A stretch of DNA of 32,835 bases from Candidatus Nealsonbacteria bacterium (GCA_030700195.1 JAUYKD010000038.1:1-32835); one strand, 5' to 3'; shown: positions 4,452 through 24,157, numbered from the stretch's first letter. The notes: generated from the letters alone by a model not told the origin. Program-made: numbers and translations.

Positions 4452-4507
4452 GGGCGATGAGAAATTATTTCTCATCTTAACCTTCTCTCGGTTTCGCCTC
4501 GCTCGGT
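4452..4507 (+). repeat. Family 2 bipartite hairpin element, degenerate second hairpin
   Basis: GGGCGATGAGAAattaTTTCTCATCTTAACCTTC...CTCGGT starts right after the SDR stop codon. It has the same ...CTCGGTGCTTGA end as the copy at 5432-5490. Confidence 0.6.
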
Positions 4508-4560
4508 GCTTGACTGGCTTATTGGCTTAAACTACGATAAAGTAATCGCACGGAAAATTC

Positions 4561-4618
4561 ACCCTGTTAAATAATTTCGCCTTTGGCGAAATTGCCGCAA
4601 AGCGGCATTTAATAGGGT
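4561..4618 (+). repeat. Family 1 stem-closed element, short form (three-way junction)
   Basis: P1 ACCCTGTTAAAT/ATTTAATAGGGT (12 bp incl. one GU). P2 AATTTCGCC-TTT-GGCGAAATT. P3 GCCGC-AAA-GCGGC. No unpaired junction bases. Same architecture as 16727-16783. Confidence 0.65.
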
Positions 4619-4662
4619 AAAGGTCGATTCAAACACTAAATTTTAAATTATTTATAATTATT

Positions 4663-4818
4663 ATGGAAGGATATTGCGTAAAATGCAAAGCTAAAAGAGA
4701 AATGTCAGAGGCCAAAGAAGTGGAAATGAACGGCAAGGGTGGAGTTAAGAGAAGGGCTATGACTGGAAAGTGCCCCAAGTGCGGAACCAAGATGTTTCGA
4801 ATTATGGGCAAGGCCTAA
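4663..4818 (+). CDS. DUF5679-like small zinc-ribbon protein (51 aa)
   Basis: Not in ORF track (under 60 aa). Hand translation: MEGYCVKCKAKREMSEAKEVEMNGKGGVKRRAMTGKCPKCGTKMFRIMGKA. CxxC...CxxC pattern as remembered for DUF5679. The antisense 60-aa ORF 4629-4811 is rejected. Confidence 0.6.
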   Translation: MEGYCVKCKAKREMSEAKEVEMNGKGGVKRRAMTGKCPKCGTKMFRIMGKA

Positions 4819-4873
4819 GGCGAAGGGAAATTCGTTCTCTTCTTTAACTTCGCTTCCATAAATGGAGCTCGTT
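4819..4873 (+). repeat. Family 2 bipartite hairpin element
   Basis: GGCGAAGGGAAattcGTTCTCTTCTTTAACTTCG-CTTCCATaaATGGAG-CTCGTT, starting right after the stop codon at 4816-4818. Confidence 0.6.
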
Positions 4874-4907
4874 ACTTAAGGATTTCCGGAAATTCTTAAA
4901 TATAGAC

Positions 4908-4931
4908 AAAAGCCGCCAAAGGGCGGCTTTT
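4908..4931 (+). terminator. Rho-independent terminator
   Basis: AAAGCCGCC-AAAG-GGCGGCTTTT hairpin with T run. Confidence 0.6.
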
Positions 4932-5057
4932 GCTTGGCAAAGATCTTTTTAGCGTTTTAAGATAATTAATGTTGGTTTGAATCTTTGTACCCGCAAACTA
5001 TTAACAATGGTTTATGCTATGATAATATAATATTGTAATACAATTTATTACAAATTT

Positions 5058-5273
5058 ATGCGTCAAGTTATTAATATTTCGTTGCCAAAAGAATTAAATA
5101 AAGCCGTTGAAGAAATCGTCAGGAATAGAAAATACGCTACAAAAAGCGAATTTTTCCGTGATTTTTTAAGATTGTGGATAGAGGGAAAAATCCTTCACGA
5201 TTTAGCGGAAAGCAGGCAAGAGCTGGTTTCTGGCAAAGGCAAACTCTTGAGATCATTGAAAGAATTAAGATAG
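5058..5273 (+). CDS. Ribbon-helix-helix (CopG/ParD-like) antitoxin-type protein
   Basis: N-terminal INISLPKELNKAVEEIV...KYATKSEFFRDFLR is the typical RHH beta-strand plus two helices. 71 aa. Confidence 0.65.
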   Translation: MRQVINISLPKELNKAVEEIVRNRKYATKSEFFRDFLRLWIEGKILHDLAESRQELVSGKGKLLRSLKELR

Positions 5274-5390
5274 TCTTTTTATCCCTCCATGAAGATTTAT
5301 TATTCGAGTCATTTTGGTTTCATTCCATTGGCGGCCACTCAATTTACAAACTTTGGGATTAAGATAAATTATAATTACTTTCTTTTCGAT

Positions 5391-5490
5391 CTTCATTCCC
5401 TTTATCCCGCAAAGCGGGACTCGGATCGTGGTCGATGAATCTAAAGATTCATCTCCACCTTCGTCCCGCAAAGCGGGACTCGGTGCTTGA
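5391..5490 (+). repeat. Family 2 bipartite hairpin element, two tandem units
   Basis: Unit a is ...TCCCGCaaagCGGGACTCGG. Unit b is GATGAATCTaaAGATTCATCTCCACCTTCGTCCCGCaaagCGGGACTCGGTGCTTGA. The hairpin of unit b is the reverse complement of the one at 14455-14474. Confidence 0.75.
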
Positions 5491-5551
5491 TTTTTTTATT
5501 AAAGCGAATAATATAATTATAGTTGTTTCAAATTTAGAAAAAATAGGGAAA

Positions 5552-5980
5552 ATGAAAATGGATATAAGATCTGGTTACCTTGATATTGCTGTTGCAATTA
5601 TCCAAAATGGTGAGCATGTTTTGATTGCCCAAAGGTCTCAATATCAAAGTCATCCTGGAAAATGGGAATTTCCTGGTGGAAAAGTAGAACCCAGCGAGGC
5701 GCTTGAAGATTGTTTGAAGCGAGAACTTTTAGAAGAGCTTGAGATAAAGATTCGAGTTGGAGAACGATTTTTAGTTTTTGAGCATAACTATGAGCCACTA
5801 GACAAAAAGATTCATCGTTTCTTTAGTTTTTGGTGCGAAATTTTGGAAGGAAAACCTCTTCTAAAAGAACATCAAAACCTTGCCTGGGTTAGGATCGAAG
5901 AGTTGTCCAATTACGATTTCATTGAAGCAGATATACAACTTGTCGAAATTCTTTTAATTAAAGAAAAGAAAGCCTTGTGA
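5552..5980 (+). CDS. NUDIX hydrolase (MutT-like)
   Basis: Nudix box GGKVEPSEALEDCLKRELLEELEI. The ORF-track start 5435 lies inside the repeat element, so ATG 5552 (or 5558) is preferred. Confidence 0.8.
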   Translation: MKMDIRSGYLDIAVAIIQNGEHVLIAQRSQYQSHPGKWEFPGGKVEPSEALEDCLKRELLEELEIKIRVGERFLVFEHNYEPLDKKIHRFFSFWCEILEGKPLLKEHQNLAWVRIEELSNYDFIEADIQLVEILLIKEKKAL

Positions 5981-6004
5981 TTTTATCACGGGGCTTTTGT
6001 TTTG
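5969..6004 (+). terminator. Rho-independent terminator overlapping NUDIX stop
   Basis: AAAGCCTTGTGAT-TTT-ATCACGGGGCTTT stem (about 11-13 bp incl. GU) followed by TGTTTTG. Confidence 0.55.
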
Positions 6005-6057
6005 TTGATTTAATATTATAATTCTAGTTCTAACATTGTCCACCAGCCCCTGCGAAT

Positions 6058-6085
6058 TTGACACTATTTATCTAATTGATATAGT
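6058..6085 (+). promoter_or_regulatory. Sigma70-like promoter for small Cys4 ORF
   Basis: TTGACA (6058-6063), 16 nt spacer, TATAGT (6080-6085). ATG follows 8 nt later, implying a near-leaderless transcript. Confidence 0.45.
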
Positions 6086-6093
6086 TAAAACAT

Positions 6094-6273
6094 ATGAGGG
6101 TGATAAAATGTGACCAATGTAAAAAGAGCATTAAAGAAAAGCCGGTAACTGCAGGAGTCGGATTGCTTTCCACGGTAGAATTATGCGAGAAATGTGGCGC
6201 ACCAATTTTAAAATTTTTAAGAAAATATAAATTTATAGAAACAAAAACTAATTCAAAACAAAAATATGCTTGA
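6094..6273 (+). CDS. Hypothetical small Cys4 (zinc-ribbon-like) protein, 59 aa
   Basis: Hand translation MRVIKCDQCKKSIKEKPVTAGVGLLSTVELCEKCGAPILKFLRKYKFIETKTNSKQKYA. CxxC...CxxC. Good promoter upstream. Below the ORF-track cutoff. Confidence 0.4.
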   Translation: MRVIKCDQCKKSIKEKPVTAGVGLLSTVELCEKCGAPILKFLRKYKFIETKTNSKQKYA

Positions 6274-6445
6274 CGATAAAGATATTCAAAAACTTATTAA
6301 AGTGAGTTATCTAAAGGAGCCGTATCTAAAGGATCCGAGCTCCTTGAGGTAAGTATTGTCCATAATCTTGGGTCTAACATCGTTCATTAGCCCCTGCGGA
6401 TTTCCGCCTATTCTTTTAGGCGATTTTGGTAGGATAAAAAGATAA

Positions 6446-7300
6446 ATGGAAAAGAAAAGTGTTTTTATTATTTTAGGAACTCTCGTTGGATTGAATATCT
6501 TAGCTTGGTCGGCGGTTTATGAGTTATCTAAAGGAGCCGAGCTCCTTGAGGTGACTTTTTTTGATGTGGGTCAGGGAGACGCCATTTTTATTGAAACGCC
6601 CCAGCGCCATCAGATTCTAATAGACGGTGGTCCTGATTCTGCTGTTTTAGAAAAAATGGGAAAAGAAATGCCGTTCTGGGATAGAACAATTGATTTAATA
6701 GTTTTGACTCATCCGGAGCGCGACCATATGTCCGGTTTGCTTGAGGTTTTAAAAAGATATAAAGTTGAAAACATTTTATGGACAGGAGTTTTAAGGGATA
6801 CGGCCGAATATAAAGAATGGCAGAGGTTAATTCAAAAAGAAGGCGCTAAAATTTATATTGCTCAAGCAGGCCAACGAATTGAAGGAGGCGAGATTTCCTT
6901 TGATATTCTGTATCCGTTTGACAGTTTAGAAGGGCAGGAATTTAAAGATAGCAATGACACTTCGATTATCGCCAAGCTGATTTTCAATGAAACCAGTTTT
7001 TTATTTACCGGTGATGCCACCATGAAAGTTGAAAAAAGATTAATAAACGAAGGGGAAGATATTGATTCGGATGTTTTGAAAGTCGGGCATCATGGAAGCA
7101 AAACTTCTTCGGCCGGAGAATTTATTCAAGCGGTATCTCCCGGCACGGCGGTTATTTCGGTCGGTGGAGACAATAACTACGGCCATCCTTATCCAGAAAC
7201 TTTGGCGATTTTAGAAAAATATGGTATAAAGATTCTTAGAACCGATTTAATAGGCGATATCAAAATAATTTCTGATGGGATCAATTTTATTATTCAATAA
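6446..7300 (+). CDS. ComEC/Rec2-type metallo-beta-lactamase domain protein with N-terminal TM anchor
   Basis: DVGQGDAIFIE, LTHPERDHMSG, GDA, VGHHGS motifs of the ComEC C-terminal MBL domain. One N-terminal TM helix. Confidence 0.8.
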   Translation: MEKKSVFIILGTLVGLNILAWSAVYELSKGAELLEVTFFDVGQGDAIFIETPQRHQILIDGGPDSAVLEKMGKEMPFWDRTIDLIVLTHPERDHMSGLLEVLKRYKVENILWTGVLRDTAEYKEWQRLIQKEGAKIYIAQAGQRIEGGEISFDILYPFDSLEGQEFKDSNDTSIIAKLIFNETSFLFTGDATMKVEKRLINEGEDIDSDVLKVGHHGSKTSSAGEFIQAVSPGTAVISVGGDNNYGHPYPETLAILEKYGIKILRTDLIGDIKIISDGINFIIQ

Positions 7301-7302
7301 CA

Positions 7303-8367: not shown

Positions 8368-8371
8368 AATG

Positions 8372-8442: not shown

Positions 8443-8452
8443 CGAATTATTT

Positions 8453-8546
8453 ACCGAGTCCCGCGTAGCGGCAATGAGATAAATCTCATTTTGAACTTCA
8501 CTGCAGTTCGTTGGTTGAAGGTAGAAGATGAGGTTCGCTCATCGCC
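8453..8546 (-). repeat. Family 2 bipartite hairpin element, two units, between rpmB and tRNA-Pro
   Basis: Read on the minus strand: GGCGATGAGcgaaCCTCATCTTCTACCTTC...then...GCCGCTACGCGGGACTCGGTAAATAATT. The first hairpin contains the rpmB stop codon. Confidence 0.7.
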
Positions 8547-8754: not shown

Positions 8755-9363
8755 ATGTCGTTGACAATCTTTTCTTTAATCGTTTTGCTTTTTTCAATAA
8801 TACTTCATGAAATAGCTCATGGCAGCATGGCTTTACGTCTGGGCGACAGCACGGCCAAGCATGCGGGACGGCTAACTCTGAATCCTTTAAAACACATTGA
8901 TCTTTTCGGCACGATTATTCTGCCGTTTCTTTTGGTTATTATACGCAGCCCTTTTATTATCGGCTGGGCAAAGCCGGTGCCCGTTAATCCATATAATTTG
9001 CGCGACCCTAAATGGGGTATGTTAAAAGTATCTTTAGCCGGTCCAAGCGTTAATTTTTTACTGGCGATAATTTTTGGTTTGATAATAAGATTTGTTCCCT
9101 TGCCAGAAGCTCTAGCGTCTTTTTTTGGCATAATCGTTTTTTATAATTTTTTATTAGGAATTTTTAACTTAATTCCCATTCCACCGCTTGATGGCTCTCA
9201 TATTCTTTTTGCTTTTTTATCAGACAGGTTTAATAATCTTAAGGTGTTTTTGTCGCAGTATGGTATTTTCATCTTTATTTTCTTTTTGTTTTTCGGCTGG
9301 CTTGATATTATTTTTCAAGGAGCGGCCATTCTTTTTTATTTGACTACCAGCCAGCCGTTTTAA
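8755..9363 (+). CDS. Site-2 protease family (peptidase M50) membrane metalloprotease
   Basis: HEIAHG zinc motif and NLIPIPPLDGSHIL motif in a polytopic membrane protein. ATG 8755 is chosen so that it does not overlap rpmB. Confidence 0.75.
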   Translation: MSLTIFSLIVLLFSIILHEIAHGSMALRLGDSTAKHAGRLTLNPLKHIDLFGTIILPFLLVIIRSPFIIGWAKPVPVNPYNLRDPKWGMLKVSLAGPSVNFLLAIIFGLIIRFVPLPEALASFFGIIVFYNFLLGIFNLIPIPPLDGSHILFAFLSDRFNNLKVFLSQYGIFIFIFFLFFGWLDIIFQGAAILFYLTTSQPF

Positions 9364-9407: not shown

Positions 9408-9428
9408 ATGCCCACCATTCATCAACTA
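9408..9428 (+). other. Duplicated rpsL 5' end (ATGCCCACCATTCATCAACTA)
   Basis: 18 of 21 nt identical to the real rpsL start 9587-9607 (ATGCCAACCATTCATCAATTG). Encodes MPTIHQL, then runs into the repeat and a stop. Confidence 0.7.
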
Positions 9429-9533
9429 CCGAGTTCCGCGTAGCGGGACGAAGGTGGAAAAGAGGGCGAAGTCCTCTTTGACTTTAACCGAGTCCCGCAT
9501 AGCGGAACGAAGGTTCAAAGAATTTTATTCTTT
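9429..9533 (-). repeat. Family 2 bipartite hairpin element, two units (inverted orientation)
   Basis: CCGAGTTCCGCgtagCGGGACGAAGGT + AAGAGGgcgaagtCCTCTT, then CCGAGTCCCGCatagCGGAACGAAGGT + AAAGAATtttATTCTTT. Confidence 0.75.
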
Positions 9534-9586
9534 TCTATTTTCGCTAACGCTCGATTGTAGATGAATTTCATATAATCATATAATTT

Positions 9587-10472: not shown

Positions 10473-12563
10473 ATGCCCAGAAAATATCCGATAGAAAGAG
10501 TCAGAGATATCGGCATCATTGCTCACATTGATGCAGGGAAAACAACCTTTACTGAAAGGGTTCTTTTCTATACGGGCATTTCTCATAAAATTGGGGAAGT
10601 GCACGAAGGAAAAGCAATTATGGATTGGATGGTTCAGGAAAGGGAAAGAGGAATTACCATAACTTCAGCCGCTACGACGTGTTTTTGGAAGGCTGAAGGG
10701 GGAGAGGAACATAGAATCAATATTATAGATACCCCGGGCCATATTGATTTTACAGCCGAAGTTCAAAGATCTTTAAGAGTGCTTGATGGAGCGGTTGTTT
10801 TGTTTGACGGGGTGGCCGGGGTTGAGCCGCAATCAGAAACAGTCTGGCACCAGGCCGATAAATTCAAGGTTCCCCGTATTTGCTTTATTAATAAACTGGA
10901 TCGTCTCGGAGCTTCTTTTGAAAAAAGCTTGGATTCAATCTTGGAGAAGCTGACGCCCAACGCTCTGGCCATACAGCTGCCCATCGGGGCTGAAGACAAG
11001 TTTGAGGGTGTGATTGATTTGCTGAAAATGAAGGCTTTAAAGTTTGAAGGCGAGTCAGGAGAACAAACCAAGGAAGAAGAAATTCCCTCCGATCTTTTAG
11101 AAAAAGCTAAAGAATGGCGGGAGAAGATGGTTGAAAGAATAGCCGCGGAAGATGAAGAGCTTCTGGAAGATTATTTAGCTAAAAAAGAAATTTCAGTAGA
11201 CGCTTTGCAAAAAGCTTTAAGAGAAGCCGCGCTTGATTATCGGCTTGTTCCGGTTTTGTGCGGCTCTGCCCTAAAAAATAAAGGAGTACAGCAAGTGCTT
11301 GATGCAGTAGTTTATTATTTGCCCAGCCCGATTGATACGCCTCCCATCAAGGGGATTGATTTGAAAACAGGCAAGGGAATAGAAAGAAAGGCGGATGATA
11401 ACGAGTTGTTTTCAGCTTTGGCTTTTAAGGTGGCTACTGATCCGTACGTCGGGACTCTGACTTATTTCAGAGTTTATTCAGGAACTTTAAAAAAGGGATC
11501 TTATGTTTTAAATTCAACCACCGGAGAAAAAGAAAGAATTGGCCGTATTTTAAGAATGCATGCTCAAGAGAGGGAAGAGGTGGAAGAGCTGTATACCGGA
11601 GACATTGCAGCTACGGTCGGACTTAAAAACACTTCAACCGGACACACGATGTGCGATGAAAAAGAGCCGATTATTCTTGAAAAAATTGTCTTTCCTGAGC
11701 CGGTTATTTCTATCCGCATTGAACCGAAAACAAAAGCTGACCAAGAAAAAATGGGCTTTGCTTTGAAGCGTTTGGCTGATGAGGATCCGACCTTCAAAAT
11801 TAAATCTGATCCTGAGACAGGCGAAACCATAATTTCCGGAATGGGGGAGCTGCACTTGGAGATCATCGCCGATAGGATGAAAAGAGAGTTTAAGGTAGAG
11901 GCCTCTGTTGGCAAGCCGCAAGTAGCTTACAAAGAAACTATAAAACAGGAAACAGAAGCAGAAGGAAAATATATCAAGCAATCAGGGGGCAGGGGGCAGT
12001 ACGGCCATGTCTGGCTAAGAGTTTTGCCTAAAGAAAGGGGAGAAGGATTTGAGTTTGTTAATGAGATAAAAGGAGGAGTTATCCCGCAAGAATATATTTC
12101 AGCTATTGGTAAAGGGGTAAAAGAAGCCATGGACAAGGGCGTGGTGGCCGGTTATCCAATGGTTGATATGCAGGTTGTTTTGTTTGACGGTTCCTATCAC
12201 GAAGTTGACTCATCTGAAATAGCTTTTAAAATTGCCGGGGCCATGGCTTTGCAATCAGCCTGCAGAAAAGCCAAGCCGGTTTTGTTGGAGCCGATTATGA
12301 AACTTGAAGTTGTAATTCCTGAAAGCTTTTTTGGAGATACTATTGGTGATTTATCCTCAAAGCGCGGTAAGATTGAAGAAACAAAAGACCGGCTTAAGAT
12401 GAAGGTGATTGAGGCTAAAGTTCCTTTGTCTGAAATGTTCGGCTACGCAACTTCGCTCCGCTCGTTGACCGAAGGCAGAGGAAATTTTTCCATGGAGTTT
12501 GACTGCTATTCTGAAGTACCCAATAATATCGCTCAAGAAATAGTTGAAGGGAAGAGAAAATAA
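10473..12563 (+). CDS. fusA: Elongation factor G
   Basis: [21 protein letters not shown] GTPase motifs. 696 aa, in the canonical position after rpsG. Confidence 0.97.
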
Positions 12564-12701: not shown

Positions 12702-12902
12702 ATGGATTTAAATGAAATCAAAAAAATAATAGGGGAAGAAGGAGGAAAAATTATTGTTGTTGAGAACAACGAGCCGGTTTTGGTTATTGTTTCGTACAAC
12801 GACTATCAAAATAAAAAGCAAAAGCCGGAGAAAAAGACGGAGAATATTTTACCTAAGGAAGTAGAAGAAGAGGAGCTGAAGATAGAAGACTTGCCTTTCT
12901 AG
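12702..12902 (+). CDS. Hypothetical small acidic protein (66 aa) inserted between fusA and tuf
   Basis: The N-terminal IIVVENNEPVLVIVSYNDYQ is reminiscent of Phd/YefM-type antitoxin N-termini. Low-complexity charged tail. Weak RBS. Confidence 0.4.
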   Translation: MDLNEIKKIIGEEGGKIIVVENNEPVLVIVSYNDYQNKKQKPEKKTENILPKEVEEEELKIEDLPF

Positions 12903-12908: not shown

Positions 12909-13036
12909 CCCCGTTAGAAGTCTTAGCCAGAAAAAATTATTTTAATTTTTTCTGCAAGGCATAACGAGGGTATAACTAAAAACAAAGGTTTATCTGAAAT
13001 TAGCTTTGTGATATATAAGACAGACTTCTAACGGGG
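12909..13036 (+). repeat. Family 1 stem-closed element, long form (copy A, 128 nt)
   Basis: CCCCGTTAGAAGTC...GACTTCTAACGGGG termini, flanked by TTGA/TTGA. The internal sequence is very similar to copies C and D. Confidence 0.8.
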
Positions 13037-13065
13037 TTGACAATTCTTTCCAAGTTTACTAAGAT
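13037..13065 (+). promoter_or_regulatory. Candidate tuf promoter abutting element A
   Basis: TTGACA (13037-13042; its first 4 nt are the direct repeat flanking the element), 17 nt spacer, TAAGAT (13060-13065). Confidence 0.4.
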
Positions 13066-13077
13066 AATAGCTAGTTG

Positions 13078-13130
13078 CCAAGTCCCGCGCAGCGGAACAA
13101 AGGCAAAGATGAGAACGAAATTCTCATCGC
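13078..13130 (-). repeat. Family 2 bipartite hairpin element (inverted orientation)
   Basis: CCAAGTCCCGCgcagCGGAACAAAGGCAAA-GATGAGAAcgaaaTTCTCATCGC. Confidence 0.7.
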
Positions 13131-13163
13131 TTGATAATAATTAATTAATAAGGAAAAAAACAT

Positions 13164-14363
13164 ATGGCCGAGAAAGAAAAGTTCATGAGGGTAAAGCCCC
13201 ACGTTAATGTAGGCACCATTGGTCACGTTGACCATGGAAAAACCACGCTTACCGCCGCTATCCTTCATATTTTAAATCTGAAGGGTTTTAAAGTTTCGGA
13301 GAAATCTGTAGACCAGATTGATTCAGCTCCGGAAGAAAAAGCAAGAGGGCTAACTATTTCTGTTTCTCATTTGGAATACGAAACCGAGAAAAGGCATTAT
13401 GCCCACATTGACTGTCCGGGTCACGCTGACTACATTAAAAATATGATTACCGGGGCGGCTCAAATGGACGGCGCTATTTTGGTAGTTTCAGCTCCAGACG
13501 GACCAATGCCTCAAACCAGAGAGCATATTCTTTTAGCCAGACAAGTTGGTTTGCCTTCAATTATTGTCTTTTTGAACAAATGCGATGCGGTAGACGACCC
13601 GGAAATTATTGACCTGGTTGAATCAGAAGTCAGGGAGCTTTTGAATAAATATAAGTTTCCCGGAGACAAAACTCCGATTATACGAGGTTCAGCCATAAAA
13701 GCGCTTGAAGCTAAATCAGCCGATGATGAAGCAGCTAAGTCAATTATGGATTTGGTTAAGGCTTTGGACGAATCAATTCCTGAACCGGTCAGGGAAATTG
13801 ACAAACCTTTCTTAATGGCTATTGAAGACGTTTTCTCAATTGAGGGTAGAGGAACAGTGGCTACGGGAAGAATAGAAAGGGGAATTGTTAAGTCTAACGA
13901 AGAAGTGGAATTAGTCGGTATTAAACCAACAGTTAAAACCACGGTTGTCAGTCTGGAAATGTTTAATAAGATTCTTGACGAAGGAAGAGCCGGAGACAAC
14001 GTTGGTGTTTTACTCAGAGGTCTAAAGAAAGAAGACGTTGAAAGAGGCCAGGTTTTAGCTAAAACAGGCACGATGACTCCTCACACTGAATTTGAGGGAG
14101 AGATATACGTTTTGACAAAAGAAGAAGGTGGCAGACATACGCCGTTTTTTCCCGGATACAAACCTCAATTTTATATAAGAACCACTGACGTTACGGGAGA
14201 CGTTACGTTGCCCGAAGGCACTGAAATGGTTATGCCCGGAGATACGGTTAATTTGAAAGTTAAGTTGATTGTTCCGGTGGCTTTACAAGAACAGCAAAGG
14301 TTTGCCATTAGAGAAGGAGGCAAGACAGTGGGAGCCGGAGTTGTCACAAAGATCATAAAATAA
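13164..14363 (+). CDS. tuf: Elongation factor Tu
   Basis: [22 protein letters not shown]. 399 aa. Confidence 0.97.
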
Positions 14364-14996: not shown

Positions 14997-15608
14997 ATGG
15001 AAAAATTCATATTAGGTTTAAAATTAGGCATGAGTCAGATGTTTGATGAAAAGGGCAATGTTGTGCCTCTAACTTTAGTTGAAGCGGGTCCATGCCAAGT
15101 TACTCAAATGAAAACTAAAGAAAAAGATGGATACGAGGCTGTTCAAATTGGTTTTAAGCAAATTGAAAAAAAGATTAAGAAATCAATGAAGAAAAAACCG
15201 TTTCGTTACCTTAAAGAGTTCAAAATTGTCGAAGAGGATAAATCCTCTTCTTCACCTTTCGCTGCGGCTCAGGTATTAGACGTTTCTTTATTTAACGAAG
15301 GAGATAAGGTTAAGATTTCAGGTGTTTCTAAAGGAAAAGGATTCCAGGGACCGGTTAAAAGATGGGGGTTTTCAGGCAGAAACGCCACTCACGGAGTTAA
15401 ACATGAACATAGAACATTGGGGTCTGTGGGTACAACCGGCCCTCAAAGAGTTATGAAGGGGAAGAAAATGGCTGGTCGCATGGGTTCAGATAGAGTAACA
15501 GTTAAGAATTTAAAAGTGGTAAAAGTGGATAAAGAAAATAATTTATTAGCTATCGCAGGAGCCGTGCCCGGAAAAAACGGTTCATTATTAGAGATTAGGG
15601 GAAGATGA
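14997..15608 (+). CDS. rplC: 50S ribosomal protein L3
   Basis: MEKFILGLKLGMSQMFDEKGNVVPLTLVEAGPC matches the usual L3 N-terminus. The track start 14976 lies inside the upstream hairpin. Confidence 0.9.
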   Translation: MEKFILGLKLGMSQMFDEKGNVVPLTLVEAGPCQVTQMKTKEKDGYEAVQIGFKQIEKKIKKSMKKKPFRYLKEFKIVEEDKSSSSPFAAAQVLDVSLFNEGDKVKISGVSKGKGFQGPVKRWGFSGRNATHGVKHEHRTLGSVGTTGPQRVMKGKKMAGRMGSDRVTVKNLKVVKVDKENNLLAIAGAVPGKNGSLLEIRGR

Positions 15609-16237
15609 AGACACAAATTTTTGACCAAACCGGAAAAGAAATCGGACAAGCCTTGCTGCCAAAGGAAATTTTCGGTTTAGAATTAAGTTCTGATTTAGTT
15701 TATCAAACAGTTTTTTCTCAAACAGCTAACCGTCGGCAAGGATCGGCTCATACTAAGGACAGAGGAGAAGTTAGCGGTGGAGGAAAAAAGCCTTGGAGGC
15801 AAAAAGGCACTGGTCGGGCTAGACATGGTTCAATTCGTTCACCTCTTTGGAAGGGGGGAGGAGTTACATTTGGTCCGAATAACGCAAAAGTTTTTAAGAA
15901 AAAAATCAATAAAAAATCACAGAGAAAAGCTTTATTGATGGTCTTATCCGCCAAAGCGCAGAAAAATCTGATTGTTTTGGTTGATAAGCTGAAAATCGAG
16001 AAACCGAGAACCAAGGAAATGGGTGAAATCTTAAAAAACCTTCCGTGTAAGGAAGGCAAATGCTTGATTGTTTTGCCGGTTATGGATAAAAACATAATTT
16101 TATCTGCCAGAAATCTCGAGAATGTTAAAGTTATGCAGGCTAAAGATTTGAATGTTTTGGATGCCTTGAGCTGCAAATATATGGTTTTGCCGAAAGAATC
16201 AATAAAAGTTATCAAAGAAACCTTTGTAAGTCGATGA
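15605..16237 (+). CDS. rplD: 50S ribosomal protein L4
   Basis: GGGKKPWRQKGTGRARHGSIRSPLWKGGGVTFGP. ATGA overlap with rplC. Confidence 0.94.
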   Translation: MKTQIFDQTGKEIGQALLPKEIFGLELSSDLVYQTVFSQTANRRQGSAHTKDRGEVSGGGKKPWRQKGTGRARHGSIRSPLWKGGGVTFGPNNAKVFKKKINKKSQRKALLMVLSAKAQKNLIVLVDKLKIEKPRTKEMGEILKNLPCKEGKCLIVLPVMDKNIILSARNLENVKVMQAKDLNVLDALSCKYMVLPKESIKVIKETFVSR

Positions 16238-16284
16238 AAATAAATTTTAATCTTCAACTTCGTTCCGCTATAGCGGAACTCGGT
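16233..16284 (+). repeat. Family 2 bipartite hairpin element
   Basis: GATGAAAATaaATTTTAATCTTCAACTTCGTTCCGCtataGCGGAACTCGGT. The rplD stop TGA is inside the first hairpin. It is followed by AAATAATTATG (rplW start). Confidence 0.75.
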
Positions 16285-16292
16285 AAATAATT

Positions 16293-16736
16293 ATGGCTTT
16301 ATTTGATATTTTTAAAAAAAAGGTTGGGAAAAAAGAAAAGACTGAAAAAAAAGAACAAAAGAAAGAAATTAAAATTGCAGAAAAACCGAAAAAGACTGTT
16401 GTAAAAAAGGAAAAGAAGGAAGCGCCTCTTCCGTCAAAACCGCAGAAAACATCTCCCAATGCTTACTCTATTTTGAAAGGGCCGCATATTACCGAAAAAG
16501 CGACCGAATTGGTTTCAGCCAACCAGTATATTTTTAATGTTTATGTTAAAGCTAACAAGCCGGAGATTAAAAAAACAATAGAAGATATTTATGGAGTTAA
16601 GGTAGTTAGCGTCAATATTGTTAATATTCCAGCTAAAAAAAGAAGATTAGGGAAAATAGAGGGTTGGAGGAAGGGATATAAAAAAGCGATTGTTAAAATA
16701 AAAGCAGGGCAAAAAATAGAAGTTTTACCCCGTTAA
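16293..16736 (+). CDS. rplW: 50S ribosomal protein L23 with about 55-aa Lys-rich N-terminal extension
   Basis: The C-terminal two-thirds (ILKGPHITEKAT...NIVNIPAKKRR...KKAIVKIKAGQKIE) is L23. The N-terminus is KKEKK-type low complexity. Confidence 0.9.
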   Translation: MALFDIFKKKVGKKEKTEKKEQKKEIKIAEKPKKTVVKKEKKEAPLPSKPQKTSPNAYSILKGPHITEKATELVSANQYIFNVYVKANKPEIKKTIEDIYGVKVVSVNIVNIPAKKRRLGKIEGWRKGYKKAIVKIKAGQKIEVLPR

Positions 16737-17981: not shown

Positions 17982-18117
17982 CCCCGTTAGAAGTCTTAGA
18001 ATTTAAAATTTTGATGAGAAAATTTTTAAATTTGAATAAATAAAATATATCAACTATAAAAATCAACTATGTCCAATAATAATTATCATAGAACAGAAAA
18101 AGCAACTTCTAACGGGG
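17982..18117 (+). repeat. Family 1 stem-closed element, long form (copy B, 136 nt, divergent interior)
   Basis: CCCCGTTAGAAGTC...(A)ACTTCTAACGGGG, flanked by TGAA/TGAA. The interior is unrelated to copies A, C and D. Confidence 0.75.
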
Positions 18118-18506
18118 TGAAAAGCAAAGCCAAACTCAACTATTTAAGAATAGCTCCGAGAAAAGTAAGATTGGTGGCCGATATAATTCGCGGCAAATCT
18201 GTTTTTGACGCCAGGAATATTTTGGGCTTTACTATTAAGAAAGCGGCTCATCCCATGTTGAAGCTTTTGAATTCAGCCGTAGCTAATGCCGGGGATATGC
18301 CAGTAGAGAATCTTTTCATATCAAAAGTTGAGGTTAATGAAGGCCCGAAATTAAAAAGGTCCAGGCCCAGAGCTCGGGGCAGAGCATACGAGATACAGAA
18401 AAAGACAAGTCATATTATTATTGTTCTGGATGAAAAAATAACAAAATCTAAAAAACCCAGAAGAAAGGCAAAACCTTCCGCTGGTCTAAAAAAACATGAG
18501 TCATAA
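18117..18506 (+). CDS. rplV: 50S ribosomal protein L22
   Basis: GTG 18117 gives (M)KSKAKLNYLRIAPRKVRLVADIIRGK, the usual spacing to the RKVRLVAD motif. The track ATG 18069 is in-frame but inside element B. Lys-rich C-terminal tail overlaps rpsC. Confidence 0.85.
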   Translation: MKSKAKLNYLRIAPRKVRLVADIIRGKSVFDARNILGFTIKKAAHPMLKLLNSAVANAGDMPVENLFISKVEVNEGPKLKRSRPRARGRAYEIQKKTSHIIIVLDEKITKSKKPRRKAKPSAGLKKHES

Positions 18507-19545: not shown

Positions 19546-19677
19546 CCCCGTTAGAAGTCCTAGCCCGAAAAAATTTAGATTAAATTTTTTCTGCAAGGCA
19601 ATAACGAGGGAATAACCAATAATAAATGTTTGTCTGAAATTAGCTTTGTGCTATATTAAGATAGACTTCTAACGGGG
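19546..19677 (+). repeat. Family 1 stem-closed element, long form (copy C, 132 nt)
   Basis: CCCCGTTAGAAGTC...GACTTCTAACGGGG, flanked by TGAA/TGAA. The last G is the first base of the rpmC GTG. Confidence 0.8.
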
Positions 19678-19910
19678 TGAAGATACAAGACCTTCGCCAA
19701 AAAACAAAGCAAGAAATCGCAAAACTCCTGGTTGATAGCCGGGAACGTTTAAGATTATTAAGATTTGACCTGGCAGCCGGCAAAGTGAAAAATGTCAGGG
19801 AAATCAGACAGCTTAAAAAAGATATTGCCAGAATATTAACATTGCTAATTGAGCTCCGCGATAGCGGAGCGAAGATAAAGAAGAGAATAAAATTCTCTTC
19901 GCCTAAATAA
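19677..19910 (+). CDS. rpmC: 50S ribosomal protein L29, C-terminal about 18 aa encoded by a family 2 repeat
   Basis: (M)KIQDLRQKTKQEIAKLLVDSRERLRLLRFDLAAGKVKNVREIRQLKKDIARILT is L29. The tail LRDSGAKIKKRIKFSSPK is read from the hairpin element 19851-19903. Confidence 0.9.
   Translation: MKIQDLRQKTKQEIAKLLVDSRERLRLLRFDLAAGKVKNVREIRQLKKDIARILTLLIELRDSGAKIKKRIKFSSPK
19851..19903 (-). repeat. Family 2 bipartite hairpin element inside the rpmC 3' end (inverted orientation)
   Basis: GAGCTCCGCgataGCGGAGCGAAGATAAA-GAAGAGAATaaaATTCTCTTCGCC. Confidence 0.7.
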
Positions 19911-19914: not shown

Positions 19915-20046
19915 CCCCGTTAGAAGTCTTAGCCAGAAAAAATTTGAATTAAATTTTTTCTGCAAGGCAATAACGAGGGTATAACCAATAATAAATATTT
20001 GTCTGAAATTAGTTTTATGCTATATTAAGACAAACTTCTAACGGGG
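19915..20046 (+). repeat. Family 1 stem-closed element, long form (copy D, 132 nt)
   Basis: CCCCGTTAGAAGTC...(A)ACTTCTAACGGGG, flanked by CATG/TATG. The rpsQ ATG starts 2 nt after the element. Confidence 0.8.
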
Positions 20047-20047
20047 T

Positions 20048-20409: not shown

Positions 20410-20411
20410 CA

Positions 20412-20783
20412 ATGATCCAAACAAGAACAATGTTAAAAGTAGCGGATAACAGCGGGGCAAAAATCCTTCAGTGTTTTCAGATATTGGGAGGCACCAGACA
20501 CAGATACGCAAAGTTGGGAGATATTATTGTCGGCACGGTTAAAAAGGCAGAGCCGAGAAAAGTTGTTAAAAAGCACGCGGTTGTCAGAGCGGTCATTGTC
20601 AGACAAAGAAAGGAATTAAGGCGGCCGGGAGGCACTTATATCAGGTTTGATGATAATGCCTGCGTTATTCTGGAAGAAAAGACAAAAGAGCCAAAGGGTG
20701 GAAGAATTTTCGGTCCAATTGCCAAAGAAGTCAAAGAAAAAGGATTTGATAAAATAGCCGCTATGGCCGAAGAATTAGTGTAG
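20412..20783 (+). CDS. rplN: 50S ribosomal protein L14
   Basis: MIQTRTMLKVADNSGAK...GDIIVGTVKKA.... Confidence 0.96.
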   Translation: MIQTRTMLKVADNSGAKILQCFQILGGTRHRYAKLGDIIVGTVKKAEPRKVVKKHAVVRAVIVRQRKELRRPGGTYIRFDDNACVILEEKTKEPKGGRIFGPIAKEVKEKGFDKIAAMAEELV

Positions 20784-20837
20784 GCGATGAGAATAGAATT
20801 CTCATCTTCAACTTCGTCCCGCTGCGCGGGACTCGTT
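20783..20837 (+). repeat. Family 2 bipartite hairpin element
   Basis: (TA)GGCGATGAGAATagAATTCTCATCTTCAACTTCGTCCCGCtgcGCGGGACTCGTT, followed by CAATG (rplX start). Confidence 0.8.
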
Positions 20838-20839
20838 CA

Positions 20840-21145: not shown

Positions 21146-21146
21146 T

Positions 21147-21704: not shown

Positions 21705-21705
21705 T

Positions 21706-21891
21706 ATGGCAAAAAAATCGCAAATAGCCAAATCAAAAAAGAAGCCCAAGTTTTCGAGCAGAATTGTCCGGCGCTGTTTTAGGTGCGGTAGGAAAAGAGC
21801 TTTTATGAGAAAGTTCGGGCTTTGCCGTATCTGTTTTAGGGAAATGGCTAACAAAGGACTTATCCCAGGAGTTCAAAAATCAAGCTGGTAA
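21706..21891 (+). CDS. rpsN: 30S ribosomal protein S14, short zinc-binding type (type Z)
   Basis: 61 aa. [24 protein letters not shown].... Confidence 0.93.
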
Positions 21892-21895
21892 ATTT

Positions 21896-22282
21896 ATGAA
21901 TCCAACAATTGACATGCTCAATAGAATAAGGAATGCTCAGGCAGTGTTGCATCCTCAAGTCGAGGTAATGTTTTCTAATCTGAATTACGAAATCGCCAAG
22001 ATTTTGGAGAAAAAAGGATTTATTGGAAAAATCACTAAAGGCAGTAAGAAAAAGATTAAAACTCTTGAACTTATTTTAAAATACGACAATAAAATGCCGG
22101 CCATTACCGGTCTTAAAAAGATTTCAAAGCCCGGGCAAAGGATTTATATGCCTGCTAAAAAAATAAAGCAAATAAAAGGCGGATATGGCATAGTGATTGT
22201 TTCAACGTCTAAAGGAATTATGACGGGGAAAGAAGCCAGGCGTCAGAATCTTGGAGGAGAAATTATTTGCGAAATATGGTAA
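21896..22282 (+). CDS. rpsH: 30S ribosomal protein S8
   Basis: DMLNRIRNA... and ...GYGIVIVSTSKGIMT...GGEIICEIW. Confidence 0.95.
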   Translation: MNPTIDMLNRIRNAQAVLHPQVEVMFSNLNYEIAKILEKKGFIGKITKGSKKKIKTLELILKYDNKMPAITGLKKISKPGQRIYMPAKKIKQIKGGYGIVIVSTSKGIMTGKEARRQNLGGEIICEIW

Positions 22283-22289
22283 ATATATT

Positions 22290-22829
22290 ATGTCAAGAAT
22301 AGGCAAAAAACCAATTGAAATACCCAAAGACGTAGAAATAAAGATTGAGGGGAATAGAGTCTCTGTTAAGGGCAAAAGAGGCGAACTTTCGCTTGAAGTC
22401 AGGCCTGAAATTAAGGTGGAAGCTAAAGAAGGGAAAGTGTTCGTTCTTTGCGAAAACCAGGAATACAAAGCTTTTTGGGGGTTGACCAGAGCTCTTATCG
22501 CTAATATAATCCAGGGTGTTGTCCAGGGATACGAAAAGAAATTGGAGCTTGTTGGAGTTGGCTATAAAGTAAACGTTGAAGGAAAGGATTTGGTTTTGAA
22601 TATTGGATTGAGCCATCCTGTAAAAATGAAAGCTCCGGAAGGCATCAGCTTTTTAACGGAAAAGAATATTATTACTATTTCTGGCATTGATAAAGGTTTA
22701 GTCGGACAGACAGCCGCCAGCATAAGGAAAATCAGACCGCCCGAGCCCTACAAGGGCAAGGGGATTAAATATGTGGATGAGCAAATTAGAAGAAAAGAAG
22801 GTAAAAAAGCGGCCACTTCTTCAGCTTAA
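22290..22829 (+). CDS. rplF: 50S ribosomal protein L6
   Basis: MSRIGKKPIEIPKDVEIKIEGN.... ATG 22290 is preferred to track start 22251, which overlaps rpsH. Confidence 0.93.
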   Translation: MSRIGKKPIEIPKDVEIKIEGNRVSVKGKRGELSLEVRPEIKVEAKEGKVFVLCENQEYKAFWGLTRALIANIIQGVVQGYEKKLELVGVGYKVNVEGKDLVLNIGLSHPVKMKAPEGISFLTEKNIITISGIDKGLVGQTAASIRKIRPPEPYKGKGIKYVDEQIRRKEGKKAATSSA

Positions 22830-22831
22830 TT

Positions 22832-23191
22832 ATGTTTAATAAACACCAAACAAGAGAACGTCGAAAAAGAAGAGTCAGAGCGAAAATGTCAGGCACAGCC
22901 AAAAAGCCCCGTCTTTGCGTTTTCAGGTCTTTAAATCATATTTATGCCCAGTTGGTGGATGATGAAAAAGGAAAGACTATTATGGCTGCTAACGATAAAG
23001 AGATTAAAAAAGGGAAGAGAACTAAAGTTGATTTAGCCAGGGAAGTAGGAAAGCTGATTGCCAAGAAGGCAAAAGACCTGCCCGCCAGTCGGCGGGTTGA
23101 AAAAGTTGTTTTTGACAGAGGTTCTTATAAGTACCACGGCCGAGTTAAGGGGGTGGCGGAAGGAGCCAGGGAAGGCGGGTTGAAGTTTTAA
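22832..23191 (+). CDS. rplR: 50S ribosomal protein L18
   Basis: ...PRLCVFRSLNHIYAQLVDD...FDRGSYKYHGRVKGVAEGAREGGLKF. Confidence 0.93.
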   Translation: MFNKHQTRERRKRRVRAKMSGTAKKPRLCVFRSLNHIYAQLVDDEKGKTIMAANDKEIKKGKRTKVDLAREVGKLIAKKAKDLPASRRVEKVVFDRGSYKYHGRVKGVAEGAREGGLKF

Positions 23192-23195
23192 AAAT

Positions 23196-23681
23196 ATGGA
23201 AAAATCATTTTCAAAATTTAGAAGGAGAGGACCGGAAAGGCCAAAGGATGATTTTGAATCCAAGCTTTTGGATTTAGCCAGAATTTCTCATACCAGAGCC
23301 GGAGGAAGAAAAATGAGATTCAGGTCGGTGGTTGTTATTGGAGACAAAAAAGGCAAGGTTGGTTTGGGCATTGCTAAGGGTCAGGATGTGGCCGCTTCCG
23401 TTGAAAAAGCAACCAGGCTTGCTAGAAAGCATTTAATACAAGTTCCCATGAGCGGGGAGACAATTCCTCATGAGGTTATTTCAAAAGTCGGCGCTTCAAG
23501 AATTTTATTAAGGCCACAAAGAAGAGGCAGGGGATTGGTAGCCGGAGGAACAGTCAGAGTGGTTTGCAGTTTGGCCGGGATTAAAGATATTTCTTCAAAA
23601 GTTTTAAGCAGGACAGGCAATAAAATCAATAATGCCAGAGCAACCATAGAGGCCTTAAAAAAGCTTAAGGAGAGAAAATAA
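23196..23681 (+). CDS. rpsE: 30S ribosomal protein S5
   Basis: ...RFRSVVVIGDKKGKVGLGIAKG...GRGLVAGG.... Confidence 0.95.
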   Translation: MEKSFSKFRRRGPERPKDDFESKLLDLARISHTRAGGRKMRFRSVVVIGDKKGKVGLGIAKGQDVAASVEKATRLARKHLIQVPMSGETIPHEVISKVGASRILLRPQRRGRGLVAGGTVRVVCSLAGIKDISSKVLSRTGNKINNARATIEALKKLKERK

Positions 23682-23684
23682 TTT

Positions 23685-24116
23685 ATGCAGCTTCACGAAA
23701 TTAAACCAATCCATAAGAAAAAAAGAAGGAAGAGAGTGGGCCGGGGAGGCAAGAGAGGAACTTATTCTGGCCGAGGTATAAAGGGCCAGAAATCAAGGGC
23801 AGGCAGAAAGCTTGTGCCTGAAATTCGGCATTTGATTAAAAGATATCCTAAATTAAGAGGATACAGGTTTAAGAGCATTCATCTTAAACCGGTGGTGGTC
23901 AATTTGGGGTTTTTAGAAAAGGAATTTAAGGCGGGAGATATAGTCAGCCCTGAAATATTGCTAAAACAAGGATTAATTCGTAGAATAAAAGGGAAAGTTC
24001 CTACAGTTAAAATATTAGCTGGAGGCAATCTTGTTAAGAAAATTGAAGTTGAAGGGTGCAAAGTATCTAAAGCTGCCAAAGAAAATATTGAGAAAGCCGG
24101 AGGAACCGTTCAATGA
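23685..24116 (+). CDS. rplO: 50S ribosomal protein L15
   Basis: MQLHEIKP...RVGRGGKRGTYSGRGIKGQKSRAG. It starts 3 nt after the rpsE stop, so no rpmD lies between them. Confidence 0.93.
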   Translation: MQLHEIKPIHKKKRRKRVGRGGKRGTYSGRGIKGQKSRAGRKLVPEIRHLIKRYPKLRGYRFKSIHLKPVVVNLGFLEKEFKAGDIVSPEILLKQGLIRRIKGKVPTVKILAGGNLVKKIEVEGCKVSKAAKENIEKAGGTVQ

Positions 24117-24157
24117 ACCTTTGGTTCATTTCCATCTTCAATAAATTTTTCATTTAT
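24113..24157 (+). repeat. Family 2-like bipartite hairpin element (AT-rich variant)
   Basis: ATGAACCttTGGTTCATTTCCATCTTCA-ATAAATttttcATTTAT. The rplO stop TGA is inside the first hairpin. Confidence 0.5.

Follow-up and report, generated by a model that had tools for sequence, protein, structure and literature searches.

A REP/RPE-like two-hairpin repeat dispersed among the ribosomal-protein genes of a Candidatus Nealsonbacteria contig and related genomes

Palindromic sequences of the repetitive extragenic type (REPs) lie near the 3′ ends of open reading frames (ORFs), may supply the stop codons of these genes and also occur as intragenic copies (PMC3733652). A CGTC-tagged super-family of REPs, which includes Neisseria dRS3 and the Rickettsia palindromic elements (RPEs) RPE-4 and RPE-6, is characterized by frequent intragenic copies, and no dedicated transposase is known for it (PMC3733652). 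Dispersed palindromic repeats that hug stop codons, sometimes in frame within genes, are well known. The subject of the present study is a repeat of this kind from the Candidate Phyla Radiation (CPR), a unit of 47–60 nt composed of two hairpins in direct order, which occurs in a complete metagenomic contig of 32,835 bp from Candidatus Nealsonbacteria (GCA_030700195.1 JAUYKD010000038.1; hereafter the window). What is new is the two-hairpin architecture, the CPR host, the heavy colonization of the S10/spc operons and of ribosomal-protein and EF-G genes, and a link through hairpin 2 to repeats of other phyla. In the searchable literature, we found no paper linking the CPR with REPs, RPEs or with MITEs (miniature transposable elements bearing inverted repeats) and no description of the element, and searches by sequence words (GTCATTGCGAG and others) returned chance primer matches only.

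The element shares with REPs, BIMEs and REPINs its short imperfect palindromes, its high copy number and a mostly extragenic location near ORF 3′ ends, where it sometimes provides the stop codon, as well as compensatory stem changes, clusters or dimers, and conserved unpaired feet that are presumed to be read by a hairpin-specific enzyme (PMC3733652, PMC3116915). It differs from them in consisting of two unlike hairpins in direct order rather than a single REP or an inverted pair, and in the absence of GTAG. Unlike in systems that pair a REP with a REP-associated tyrosine transposase (RAYT), no RAYT gene is flanked by the element, and unlike proteobacterial REPs it resides in CPR hosts with very small genomes, where it fills S10/spc operon junctions. 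Rickettsia RPE-1 and its relatives are likewise palindromic, are inserted in frame in essential genes, to whose products they add a hydrophilic peptide without loss of the reading frame, and reside in a reduced, host-dependent genome; however, RPE-1 is ~100–150 bp in length, whereas our element is mostly intercistronic and found in ribosomal proteins, and the likeness drawn here is one of description, the CGTC-tagged super-family (PMC3733652) being the only link. Mycobacterium MIRUs are 40–100-bp units between operon genes with ends that overlap the flanking stop and start codons, but they have one orientation and small coupling ORFs, whereas 31 of 95 copies of the element are antisense and the element is defined by its two hairpins. 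Finally, the IS200/IS605-derived PATEs similarly possess a hairpin close to either end and lack both terminal inverted repeats and target duplications; they also favor a short sequence next to the insertion point, a trait that the element may share, given a TGA/TAA beside 49 of 94 copies but not beside all. Here the differences lie in size (47–60 nt versus >100 nt), in hairpins that are unlike each other, in the lack of any cognate TnpA found and in a weak orientation bias.

Architecture, covariation and relatives of the element

In the forward orientation, the unit reads A-G-(G/T)-C, hairpin 1, a 3-nt linker T(T/C)C, the first strand of a 3-bp outer helix, TTC, hairpin 2, T(C/T), the outer-helix partner GG(T/G), and (T)A. 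Hairpin 1 has a stem of 6–10 bp on the foot (G/A)A(T/A)GA...TC(A/T)T(C/T), and hairpin 2 has as a rule a 7-bp stem, although stems as short as 2 bp and long, insertion-bearing ones also occur. Feet and junctions show conservation, and the upper parts of the stems change freely provided that pairing is kept. The ends of the unit, GGCGATGA and CTCGGTA, bear no inverted-repeat relation to each other.

A strict scan for TTC, a 7-bp stem, a 3–5-nt loop, TC and the 3-bp outer helix yielded 10 matches in the window versus 0–1 in each of 20 shuffles (mean ~0.1). A gap-free structural alignment of 33 copies (A2) was the basis of a covariance model, R1, of 61 positions and 19 pairs, which at E<1e-5 (the R1 E-values are rough) recovered 19 window copies, 12 of them plus-strand and 7 minus-strand. 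An earlier reading of the window, made from the sequence only, had described a bipartite hairpin at a list of loci; it was present at every one of them, and R1 added copies at 15227–15277 and 32617–32691, the latter beyond the range of that reading.

The R1 seeds were picked for pairing, which makes the A2 statistics partly circular, and a test on 76 independent matches from related loci, which were fitted to the model, has a lean in the same direction. In that test, 94.9% of the cells were paired and 18 of the 19 pairs showed double changes, as compared to 0 of 500 shuffles reaching as high a value and 39–53% pairing in slid alignments. Covariation was seen in all three helices, and the earlier observation that the stems vary while staying paired is thus upheld. 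In contrast, the linkers CTTCG and CTCGG, which the same reading took to be constant, contain a helix, as evidenced by the covariation of the ACC and GGT partners within them; this outer helix is mostly ACC:GGT, with AGC/GCT, GCC/GGC and ATC/GAT variants. Nor could the proposed resemblance of NTAG/GCAG loops to a REP GTAG signature be sustained. The hairpin-2 loops are highly variable (AAA, TTC, TGC, TAA, TAC, TAT, TCA, TATA and others), and the conserved feet of the window copies are TTCG...CTCGG, with neither a GTAG nor a CGTC tag.

Two subfamilies were distinguished by linked variants that do not pair, namely G at position 3 with T at position 27 versus T with C (39 and 34 copies versus 17 off-diagonal; Fisher p=6e-10). 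Both were found together in single genomes. Linkage between non-pairing variants argues for descent by copying and not for a separate origin at each site.

A search of Rfam 15 at gathering and permissive thresholds returned only the tRNA-Pro of the window above threshold, and the elements remained unmatched even at E<=0.5. An intrinsic terminator was rejected as an explanation because no U-run follows the element hairpins (hairpin 2 is followed by CTCGGT), although a few hairpin-1 stems were flagged weakly. TIGR-Tas arrays were also set aside, being tandem guide arrays and not dispersed hairpins.

To place hairpin 2 in a wider context, the pattern CTTCGTYCCGC-N3-4-GCGGRACTCG was searched in species-representative genomes (596 Gb). 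The matches listed fall in >117 stretches, where ~2 would be expected by chance, and their hosts include Bacteroidota, Ignavibacteriota, Chlorobiota, Patescibacteria, Omnitrophota, Planctomycetota, Chloroflexota, Acidobacteriota, Clostridia and others. In 54 of the 119 matches listed, hairpin 2 is enclosed by an outer helix ATTGC/GCAAT followed by GAC(G/A), which on the other strand corresponds to a CGTC or TGTC tag and a stem that starts with AT. An inverted partner lies within 120 nt for 35 of the 54. These repeats and the CPR element have a core in common, in which an outer helix and an asymmetric TTCG/CTC internal loop surround a variable inner hairpin. The (C/T)GTC tag, the ATTGC...GCAAT stem and the frequent inverted dimers of the hairpin-2 relatives are shared with the CGTC-tagged REPs of Di Nocera et al. 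(2013), and this resemblance suggests that the CPR element may belong to the CGTC-tagged super-family. The window copies differ in lacking the tag, which only the non-CPR relatives bear, in having the 3-bp ACC/GGT outer helix in place of ATTGC/GCAAT and in the added hairpin 1. The asymmetric TTC/TC loop and the hypervariable inner hairpin seen in the window are not covered by the consensus sequences published for CGTC-1 to CGTC-4.

The cross-phylum repeat (loci L001–L117) can be written as (C/T)GTC-ATTGC-GAG-[variable hairpin]-CGAA-GCAAT-C and often forms inverted pairs. A distinct Bacteroidales form has ...CCGGCCCCTCCCACAATCTA and TATCTTGCGGGCCCC flanks.

Insertion sites, occupancy and stop-codon spacing

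The distribution of the element was examined in a set of 80 loci encoding relatives of RplB (783 kb), with gene coordinates derived from tblastn and a start-codon heuristic. R1 returned 76 matches in only ~14 of these loci and none in ~65, the richest being L154 (19 matches), L169 (15), L156 (10), L144 (9), L133 (7) and L149 (6). Some of the relatives lacking the element are no more distant from the window than the carriers, and in a crude neighbor-joining tree of six proteins the carriers were dispersed among non-carriers. A junction spans −4 to ~15 nt when empty and 55–80 nt per copy when filled. Which junctions are occupied differs by genome: in the window these are rplD-rplW, rplB-rpsS, rpsQ-rplN, rplN-rplX and rplO-secY; in L154, rpsL-rpsG, rplC-rplD, rplD-rplW, rpsC-rplP, rplP-rpmC, rpsN-rpsH and rplR-rpsE; and in L156, rpsJ-rplC, rplC-rplD, rplP-rpmC and rplE-rpsN. 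The range of the element extends beyond ribosomal operons. In the metagenome-assembled genome (MAG) JAUSLA01, it was present on seven contigs at ~1 copy per kb, in pieces picked for a pattern match. Densities between related genomes range from 0 to ~1 per kb, values that are biased by the sampling of loci as ribosomal-protein operons or by pattern match. Among viral contigs, 53 pattern matches were obtained, which is about chance level, and R1 confirmed none of them (two weak, G+C-rich matches scored 22–23 bits).

When the flanks of many copies were rejoined, they matched contiguous sequence in other genomes; for the copy at 20782, the joined flanks correspond to an empty site in L119, L146 and others. 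The closest RplB in public metagenomes is only ~70% identical to that of the window, and empty sites for window copies are consequently visible only at ~70–80% flank identity. Closer comparisons were available between related loci. The rpsQ gene of L144 contains a 48-nt in-frame copy that is missing from L149, with flanks that are 95% identical, and L144 also has a 47-nt reversed copy nested in another copy, just past the hairpin 1 of the latter, which is missing from L129 and L149 with flanks 96% identical. Both insertions are recent, and both are single units, not inverted pairs. Four further junctions were variably filled or empty at 81–86% flank identity. Filled and empty sites define sharp boundaries, with G(G/T)C... 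at one end and ...GG(T/G)(T)A at the other, and in six such comparisons no target duplication beyond 1–2 nt of ambiguous bases was found. The identical flanks of L133 and L149 at the rplP-rpmC site enclose copies of different subfamilies, indicating that copies are replaced or re-inserted faster than the neighboring genes change. Tandem arrays of four 74-nt units (L144) and of three units (L003) were also observed.

Two candidate interpretations of the ends were discarded. One was a target-site duplication in which GAWGA would be repeated in the 3′ flank and in the 5′ arm of hairpin 1; it was dropped since the pentamers mismatch copy by copy and the TGA pre-exists in empty sites. A classical DDE-type MITE was excluded on the lack of both terminal inverted repeats and a target-site duplication.

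The sequence-only reading had emphasized a fixed spacing to stop and start codons. The CTCGGT end indeed lies 2, 2, 8, 8 and 12 nt before the next ATG, within the 2–12 nt proposed, and CTCGGTAAATAATTATG is identical upstream of rplW and rpsS on reading the sequence. That hairpin 1 starts at or contains the upstream stop codon was confirmed for the SDR gene (TAA ending at 4451), the DUF5679 gene (TAA ending at 4818), rplD, rplB and rpsQ (in the latter two the TAA is in a hairpin-1 loop), rplN (TAG immediately 5′ of GCGATGAG) and rplO (TGA within AATGAACC). The exception is the gene before the 5391 copies, which had been taken for rpmB and is actually a CopG/RHH gene; the 5391 and 5430 copies lie in a 161-nt ORF-to-ORF gap, and the stop codon is >100 nt away.

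A target preference accounts for this spacing. Of 94 copies, 49 have TGA or TAA as the triplet 3 nt past GGT, versus 5.7% at control offsets, with enrichment in antisense copies too (13 of 31). Since empty sites already have the triplet, it belongs to the target and not to the element. An A/T-rich spot just 5′ of TGA or TAA is, in such genomes, typically a stop codon or an ATGA stop/start overlap between cistrons. In the window, many gene junctions are overlapping or 1–7 nt in length, an A/T-rich stretch precedes the start codons (e.g., AATAATT-ATG) and Shine-Dalgarno motifs are essentially absent. An insertion of 47–60 nt at such a site fills the whole gap, which places the stop codon in or beside hairpin 1 and leaves 2–12 nt to the next ATG. 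The fixed spacing thus results from insertion into junctions a few nucleotides long, with a preference for the position 3 nt upstream of TGA/TAA, and calls for no dedicated spacing function.

Copies within genes were also encountered. Alignments of rplC, rplD, rpmC, rpsQ and fusA showed in-frame insertions that keep the ORF and are absent from orthologues. The L3 loop site of the 15227 copy is also occupied in L190, L156, L144 and L165, and L154 adds a 40-residue block there. The C-terminal extension of L29 is found in the window and L154 and is missing in ten relatives, the L4 protein of L154 has a 50-residue tail, and the EF-G of L169 has a 20-residue insertion ahead of a 10-residue motif; S17, S8, S5 and L23 have in-frame copies in single genomes. 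In MAG JAUSLA01, in-frame copies in both orientations were found in ORFs, confirmed with Pfam, for a Mur ligase, a D-Ala-D-Ala carboxypeptidase, class I and class II tRNA synthetases and DnaX. Such behavior is in line with published accounts of Rickettsia RPEs and intragenic REPs (PMC3733652). CPR/Patescibacteria are regarded as streamlined, with genomes of ~1 Mb, yet some of them bear a selfish repeat at ~1 copy per kb, even in the S10/spc operon, with L3, L4, L23, L29, S5, S8, S17 and EF-G hit in frame. Gene calling in such genomes calls for caution with regard to false N-terminal extensions, element-encoded C-termini and spurious small ORFs, and so do concatenated ribosomal-protein phylogenies, because element-encoded insertions are not homologous characters.

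Means of spread and competing explanations

Taken together, these data describe a copy-number-dynamic insertion element with precise ends and a preference for TGA/TAA-adjacent sites, which is tolerated where reading frames are kept. We consider it likely that the element is selfish, mobile DNA of the REP/RPE type, non-autonomous and turning over in some Parcubacteria-type CPR genomes. Copies insert cleanly, without target duplication, into A/T-rich spots, preferably 3 nt 5′ of TGA or TAA, and would then be filtered by purifying selection, such that survivors supply or respect the upstream stop codon and leave the next ATG free; these would be mostly in sense orientation in tight junctions, or a multiple of three in length where they lie in surface loops or at the termini of proteins. 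A hairpin at each end, no duplication and no terminal inverted repeats together fit single-strand chemistry, and a single-stranded-DNA hairpin mechanism is our best guess for the mode of spread. The single-stranded hairpin intermediate might be handled in trans by an HUH/Y1-like enzyme through "peel and paste" or by another hairpin-specific enzyme, and such a mobilizer would recognize the conserved TTCG...CTC internal loop around hairpin 2. The narrower proposal that an HUH mechanism is responsible is tentative and, in our judgment, somewhat doubtful. Transcribed copies would form two stable RNA hairpins, with a possible side effect on mRNA decay or translational coupling.

A number of observations weigh against a purely selfish element spread in this manner. 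Unlike the ends of IS200/IS605 elements, the two hairpins are dissimilar, and IS200/IS605 elements are strongly replication-biased, whereas the window copies are 12 plus and 7 minus, with the direction of replication inferred here from GC skew only. Distant genomes have some sites in common, namely the loop in rplC, the end of rpmC and rpsQ-rplN (the last also occupied in L169), which could reflect function. The same may be said of orientation at ribosomal-protein loci, where 64 of 95 copies are sense and 31 antisense (p=0.0009), the bias being strongest in tight junctions (~33 versus 8), while antisense copies gather in the long gaps before rpsL, tuf, rpsJ and rplC. Furthermore, three unrelated hairpin-forming fillers occupy CPR ribosomal-protein junctions, namely the element, a 133-nt element with terminal inverted repeats and the heptamer palindromes of L155, and this could hint at a selective advantage of intercistronic hairpins. 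Lastly, no transposase could be linked to the element. The Y1 gene of the window has hairpins of its own that are unrelated to hairpins 1 and 2, and a tblastn search of ~1.5 Mb (L001–L197, including all element-bearing loci) found no homologue of its protein.

That Y1 gene, at 27477–28205, encodes a Y1_Tnp domain (PF01797, E=7e-11), and the sequence-only reading had proposed its product as a candidate for acting on hairpin 2. The idea that the element is the substrate of this IS200/RAYT-like protein, and hence the REP of a local REP-RAYT system, would be in keeping with a score nearer to the RAYT model (NF047646, 49 bits) than to IS200 (NF033573, 16 bits), with homologues that are single-copy, two of them (L198 and L199) having gene neighbors in common, as is usual for RAYTs, and with an element that has hairpins and inserts without target duplication. 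However, the RAYT score does not reach the cut-off of 80, and inverted hairpins, ACACAG-ACCCGAC-CTGTGT and ACACAG-GTCGGGT-CTGTG, lie on either side of the gene. The homologues in L198, L199 and L200 have kept flanking hairpins with the same loop and with stems that are different but complementary, which indicates that the GTCGGGT-loop hairpin is cognate to this Y1 family. Moreover, ~60 kb around three homologues contained no R1 match. Given its own different hairpins, the lack of the element near its homologues and the lack of homologues in carriers, the local Y1 protein is probably not the mobilizer, and we consider a local REP-RAYT system very unlikely.

The Y1 locus shows several features of its own. 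The hairpins are at 27418–27436 and 28226–28243, with a third copy inside the ORF at 27675–27695. The cassette (27376–28361) is bracketed by a 35-nt direct repeat (27376–27410 and 28327–28361, 89% identical) that represents a duplicated 5′ end of the downstream membrane-protein gene, and the homologous cassette of L198 and L199 has as its neighbor a tRNA gene or the duplicated 3′ end of a tRNA. With regard to the flanking hairpins, the Y1 arrangement resembles that called "TIRYT" (PMC3733652). A sequence search of the PDB with the Y1 protein gave no match.

The sequence-only reading regarded the element as a REP-like repeat co-opted as an intercistronic module. Its first half, a REP-like dispersed hairpin repeat, stands, while co-option fares poorly. 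Under such a view, the hairpins would be kept for a role in mRNA, for example as a processing site, a barrier to 3′–5′ decay, or a device for insulation or re-initiation. Stabilization of upstream mRNA is an established property of E. coli REPs, and the overlap of hairpin 1 with the stop codon, the placement of the 3′ end 2–12 nt before the next ATG, the lack of Shine-Dalgarno motifs in these genes and the presence of several unrelated hairpin fillers at like CPR operon sites would all be compatible with a module of this type. The sense excess is the best argument that some copies matter in mRNA; in our reading, either antisense copies are selected against in tight junctions or insertion prefers one strand. 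What argues against an mRNA role is that most related operons (~65 of 80 loci) lack the element and that the filled junctions vary by genome, with presence/absence polymorphism at 95–96% flank identity and filled and empty orthologous sites coexisting across 81–96%. One-third of the copies are antisense, tandem and nested copies are present, and coding sequences contain copies in both orientations, some of them in frame. Pairing at the mRNA level would be expected to enrich G-U pairs on the transcribed strand, but G-U-type pairs numbered 32 on the sense strand versus 29 that would wobble only on the antisense strand (p=0.8), giving no support for an RNA-level constraint. The missing U-run means that the hairpins are not terminators, and the spc half of the operon, from rplE to rplO, manages with gaps of 1–7 nt and no element. 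A co-opted RNA module is therefore unlikely.

A host function at the DNA level, in which the hairpins or cruciforms bind a nucleoid, topoisomerase or replication protein, is highly improbable. Binding of IHF and gyrase has been proposed for BIMEs, strand-symmetric pairing is equally compatible with such a role, and the conserved feet could be a protein-binding motif across phyla; on the other hand, the patchiness, polymorphism, arrays and intragenic copies, a density that ranges from 0 to ~1 per kb among related genomes, and the lack of a candidate protein do not fit it. A broader conjecture is that the outer helix, TTCG/CTC loop and variable hairpin are a recognition module, used across phyla by a hairpin-specific enzyme or host factor, that the CPR form gained a second hairpin, and that sense copies were domesticated as intercistronic insulators or mRNA-stability elements of ribosomal-protein operons in genomes devoid of Shine-Dalgarno motifs; we offer this as speculation with a small chance of being correct. 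Our preferred reading, a selfish REP/RPE-like repeat, extends elements of this type to a major uncultured lineage and ties them by hairpin 2 to a cross-phylum family, and hairpin 2 provides a compact, well-defined substrate with which to seek the mobilizing enzyme.

Copies in the window and neighboring features

The window has a G+C content of ~39% and is 86% coding, with all genes on the plus strand except tRNA-Pro. They include rpsL-rpsG-fusA, tuf, the S10 and spc ribosomal-protein operons, secY-adk-map and the Y1 transposase-like gene. The Y1 protein has its best-named relatives in Nealsonbacteria, so that the contig derives from a Parcubacteria-type CPR bacterium; exact look-ups of the rplW and tuf products gave no match. 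Copies and remnants of the element are listed in Table 1; 17 of the 19 R1 copies are extragenic, and there are only two head-to-head pairs (8469/8497 and 9484/9513). The two minus-strand copies previously read at 8453 are actually a hairpin-2 remnant followed by one plus and one minus copy with a common hairpin 2. The inverted copies noted in the larger gaps before rpsL, tuf and rpsJ are those at 9425, 9484, 13074, 14368 and 14421, in agreement with the earlier description.

Table 1. Copies and remnants of the two-hairpin element in the window (bit scores and E-values from R1)
Coordinates	Strand	Feature	Evidence
4452–4513	+	Copy directly 3′ of SDR-gene TAA; hairpin 1 intact (GATGAGAAA/TTTCTCATC), hairpin 2 degenerate	44.6 bits, E=6e-12 over 4452–4495
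4818–4876	+	Copy directly 3′ of DUF5679-gene TAA; one G-T pair in hairpin 1, bulge in hairpin 2	47.3 bits
5375–5428	+	Partial copy; hairpin 2 ATCCCGC AAA GCGGGAC + CTCGG, hairpin 1 decayed	Partial match 5399–5424, 11.5 bits, E=0.07
5430–5487	+	Complete copy, GTC...TCC subfamily	59.2 bits; strict scan
8453–8472	−	Reversed hairpin-2 remnant (ACCGAGTCCCGCGTAGCGGCA)	Read directly
8469–8515	+	Copy with minimal hairpin 2 (ACTGCAGT); head-to-head with 8497 copy, hairpin 2 common	33.5 bits
8497–8547	−	Degenerate reversed copy (reverse complement: GGCGATGAGCGAACCTCATCTTCTACCTTCAA...)	15.1 bits, E=0.005
9425–9483	−	Complete reversed copy, gap before rpsL	61.6 bits
9484–9536	−	Reversed copy, tandem with 9425 copy	30.6 bits; strict scan
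9513–9558	+	Forward copy, minimal hairpin 2; palindromic hairpin 1 common with 9484 copy	25.6 bits, E=3e-6
13074–13132	−	Reversed copy upstream of tuf; outer helix GCC/GGC	53.3 bits
14368–14420	−	Reversed copy, tuf-rpsJ gap; outer helix AGC/GCT	40.9 bits
14421–14478	−	Reversed copy, tandem with 14368 copy; outer helix AGC/GCT; end 4 nt before rpsJ start codon	59.1 bits
15227–15277	+	In-frame copy within rplC, encodes VEEDKSSSSPFAAAQV in variable L3 loop; hairpin 2 decayed	36.6 bits
16229–16287	+	Copy occupying rplD-rplW junction; rplD TGA in hairpin-1 GATGA	49.2 bits
17584–17648	+	Copy occupying rplB-rpsS junction; rplB TAA in hairpin-1 loop	54.2 bits
19845–19904	−	Reversed copy forming 3′ end of rpmC, encodes extension IELRDSGAKIKKRIKFSSPK and stop	63.8 bits
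20296–20342	+	Copy at rpsQ end; TAA in hairpin-1 loop, hairpin 2 lost	32.5 bits
20353–20412	+	Complete copy, A/T-rich hairpin 2 (GTTTTAAT/ATTAAAAC); end 2 nt before rplN ATG	68.0 bits
20782–20840	+	Complete copy occupying rplN-rplX junction	67.7 bits
24108–24166	+	A/T-rich copy occupying rplO-secY junction; rplO TGA in hairpin 1; outer helix ATC/GAT	46.4 bits
32617–32691	−	Reversed copy; hairpin 1 with extra internal stem	43.5 bits

The longest ORF of the NUDIX gene begins at an ATG within hairpin 1 of the 5430 copy. The resulting 39-residue N-terminal extension (5435–5551) is probably false; the Pfam match starts from residue 52, and an internal start at MKMD is likelier. A lone small ORF between fusA and tuf (12702–12902) showed weak similarity to the Phd/YefM antitoxin (E=1.5e-4, below the Pfam cut-off), with no toxin partner evident.

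The ~133-nt repeat mentioned above is unrelated to the element and is present in the window at 12909–13037, 17982–18118, 19546–19678 and 19915–20047, where it occupies the fusA-tuf, rpsS-rplV, rplP-rpmC and rpmC-rpsQ gaps. It has terminal inverted repeats of 16–19 bp (CCCCGTTAGAAGTCT...AGACTTCTAACGGGG), folds as one long hairpin (−46 to −49 kcal/mol) and contains an outward-facing, TG-extended promoter-like site, TTGTCT-16-TATATT. The diverged copy at 17982–18118 provides the N-terminus of the rplV ORF, and relatives of the repeat were found in L155, L173, L144 and L127. L155 (e.g., at 9116–9243, 11921–12046, 13836–13966, 15335–15496 and 16189–16344) and L141 contain intercistronic palindromes of tandem 7-nt repeats of the AAGTTAC/GTAACTT type, in ribosomal-protein gaps of 70–345 nt.

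Upstream of the DUF5679 gene, at 4563–4625, a structure resembling a three-way junction was noted, which gave no match in Rfam. Its outer stem, CCCTGTTAAAT/ATTTAATAGGG, encloses the two hairpins AATTTCGCC-TTT-GGCGAAATT and GCCGC-AAA-GCGGC.

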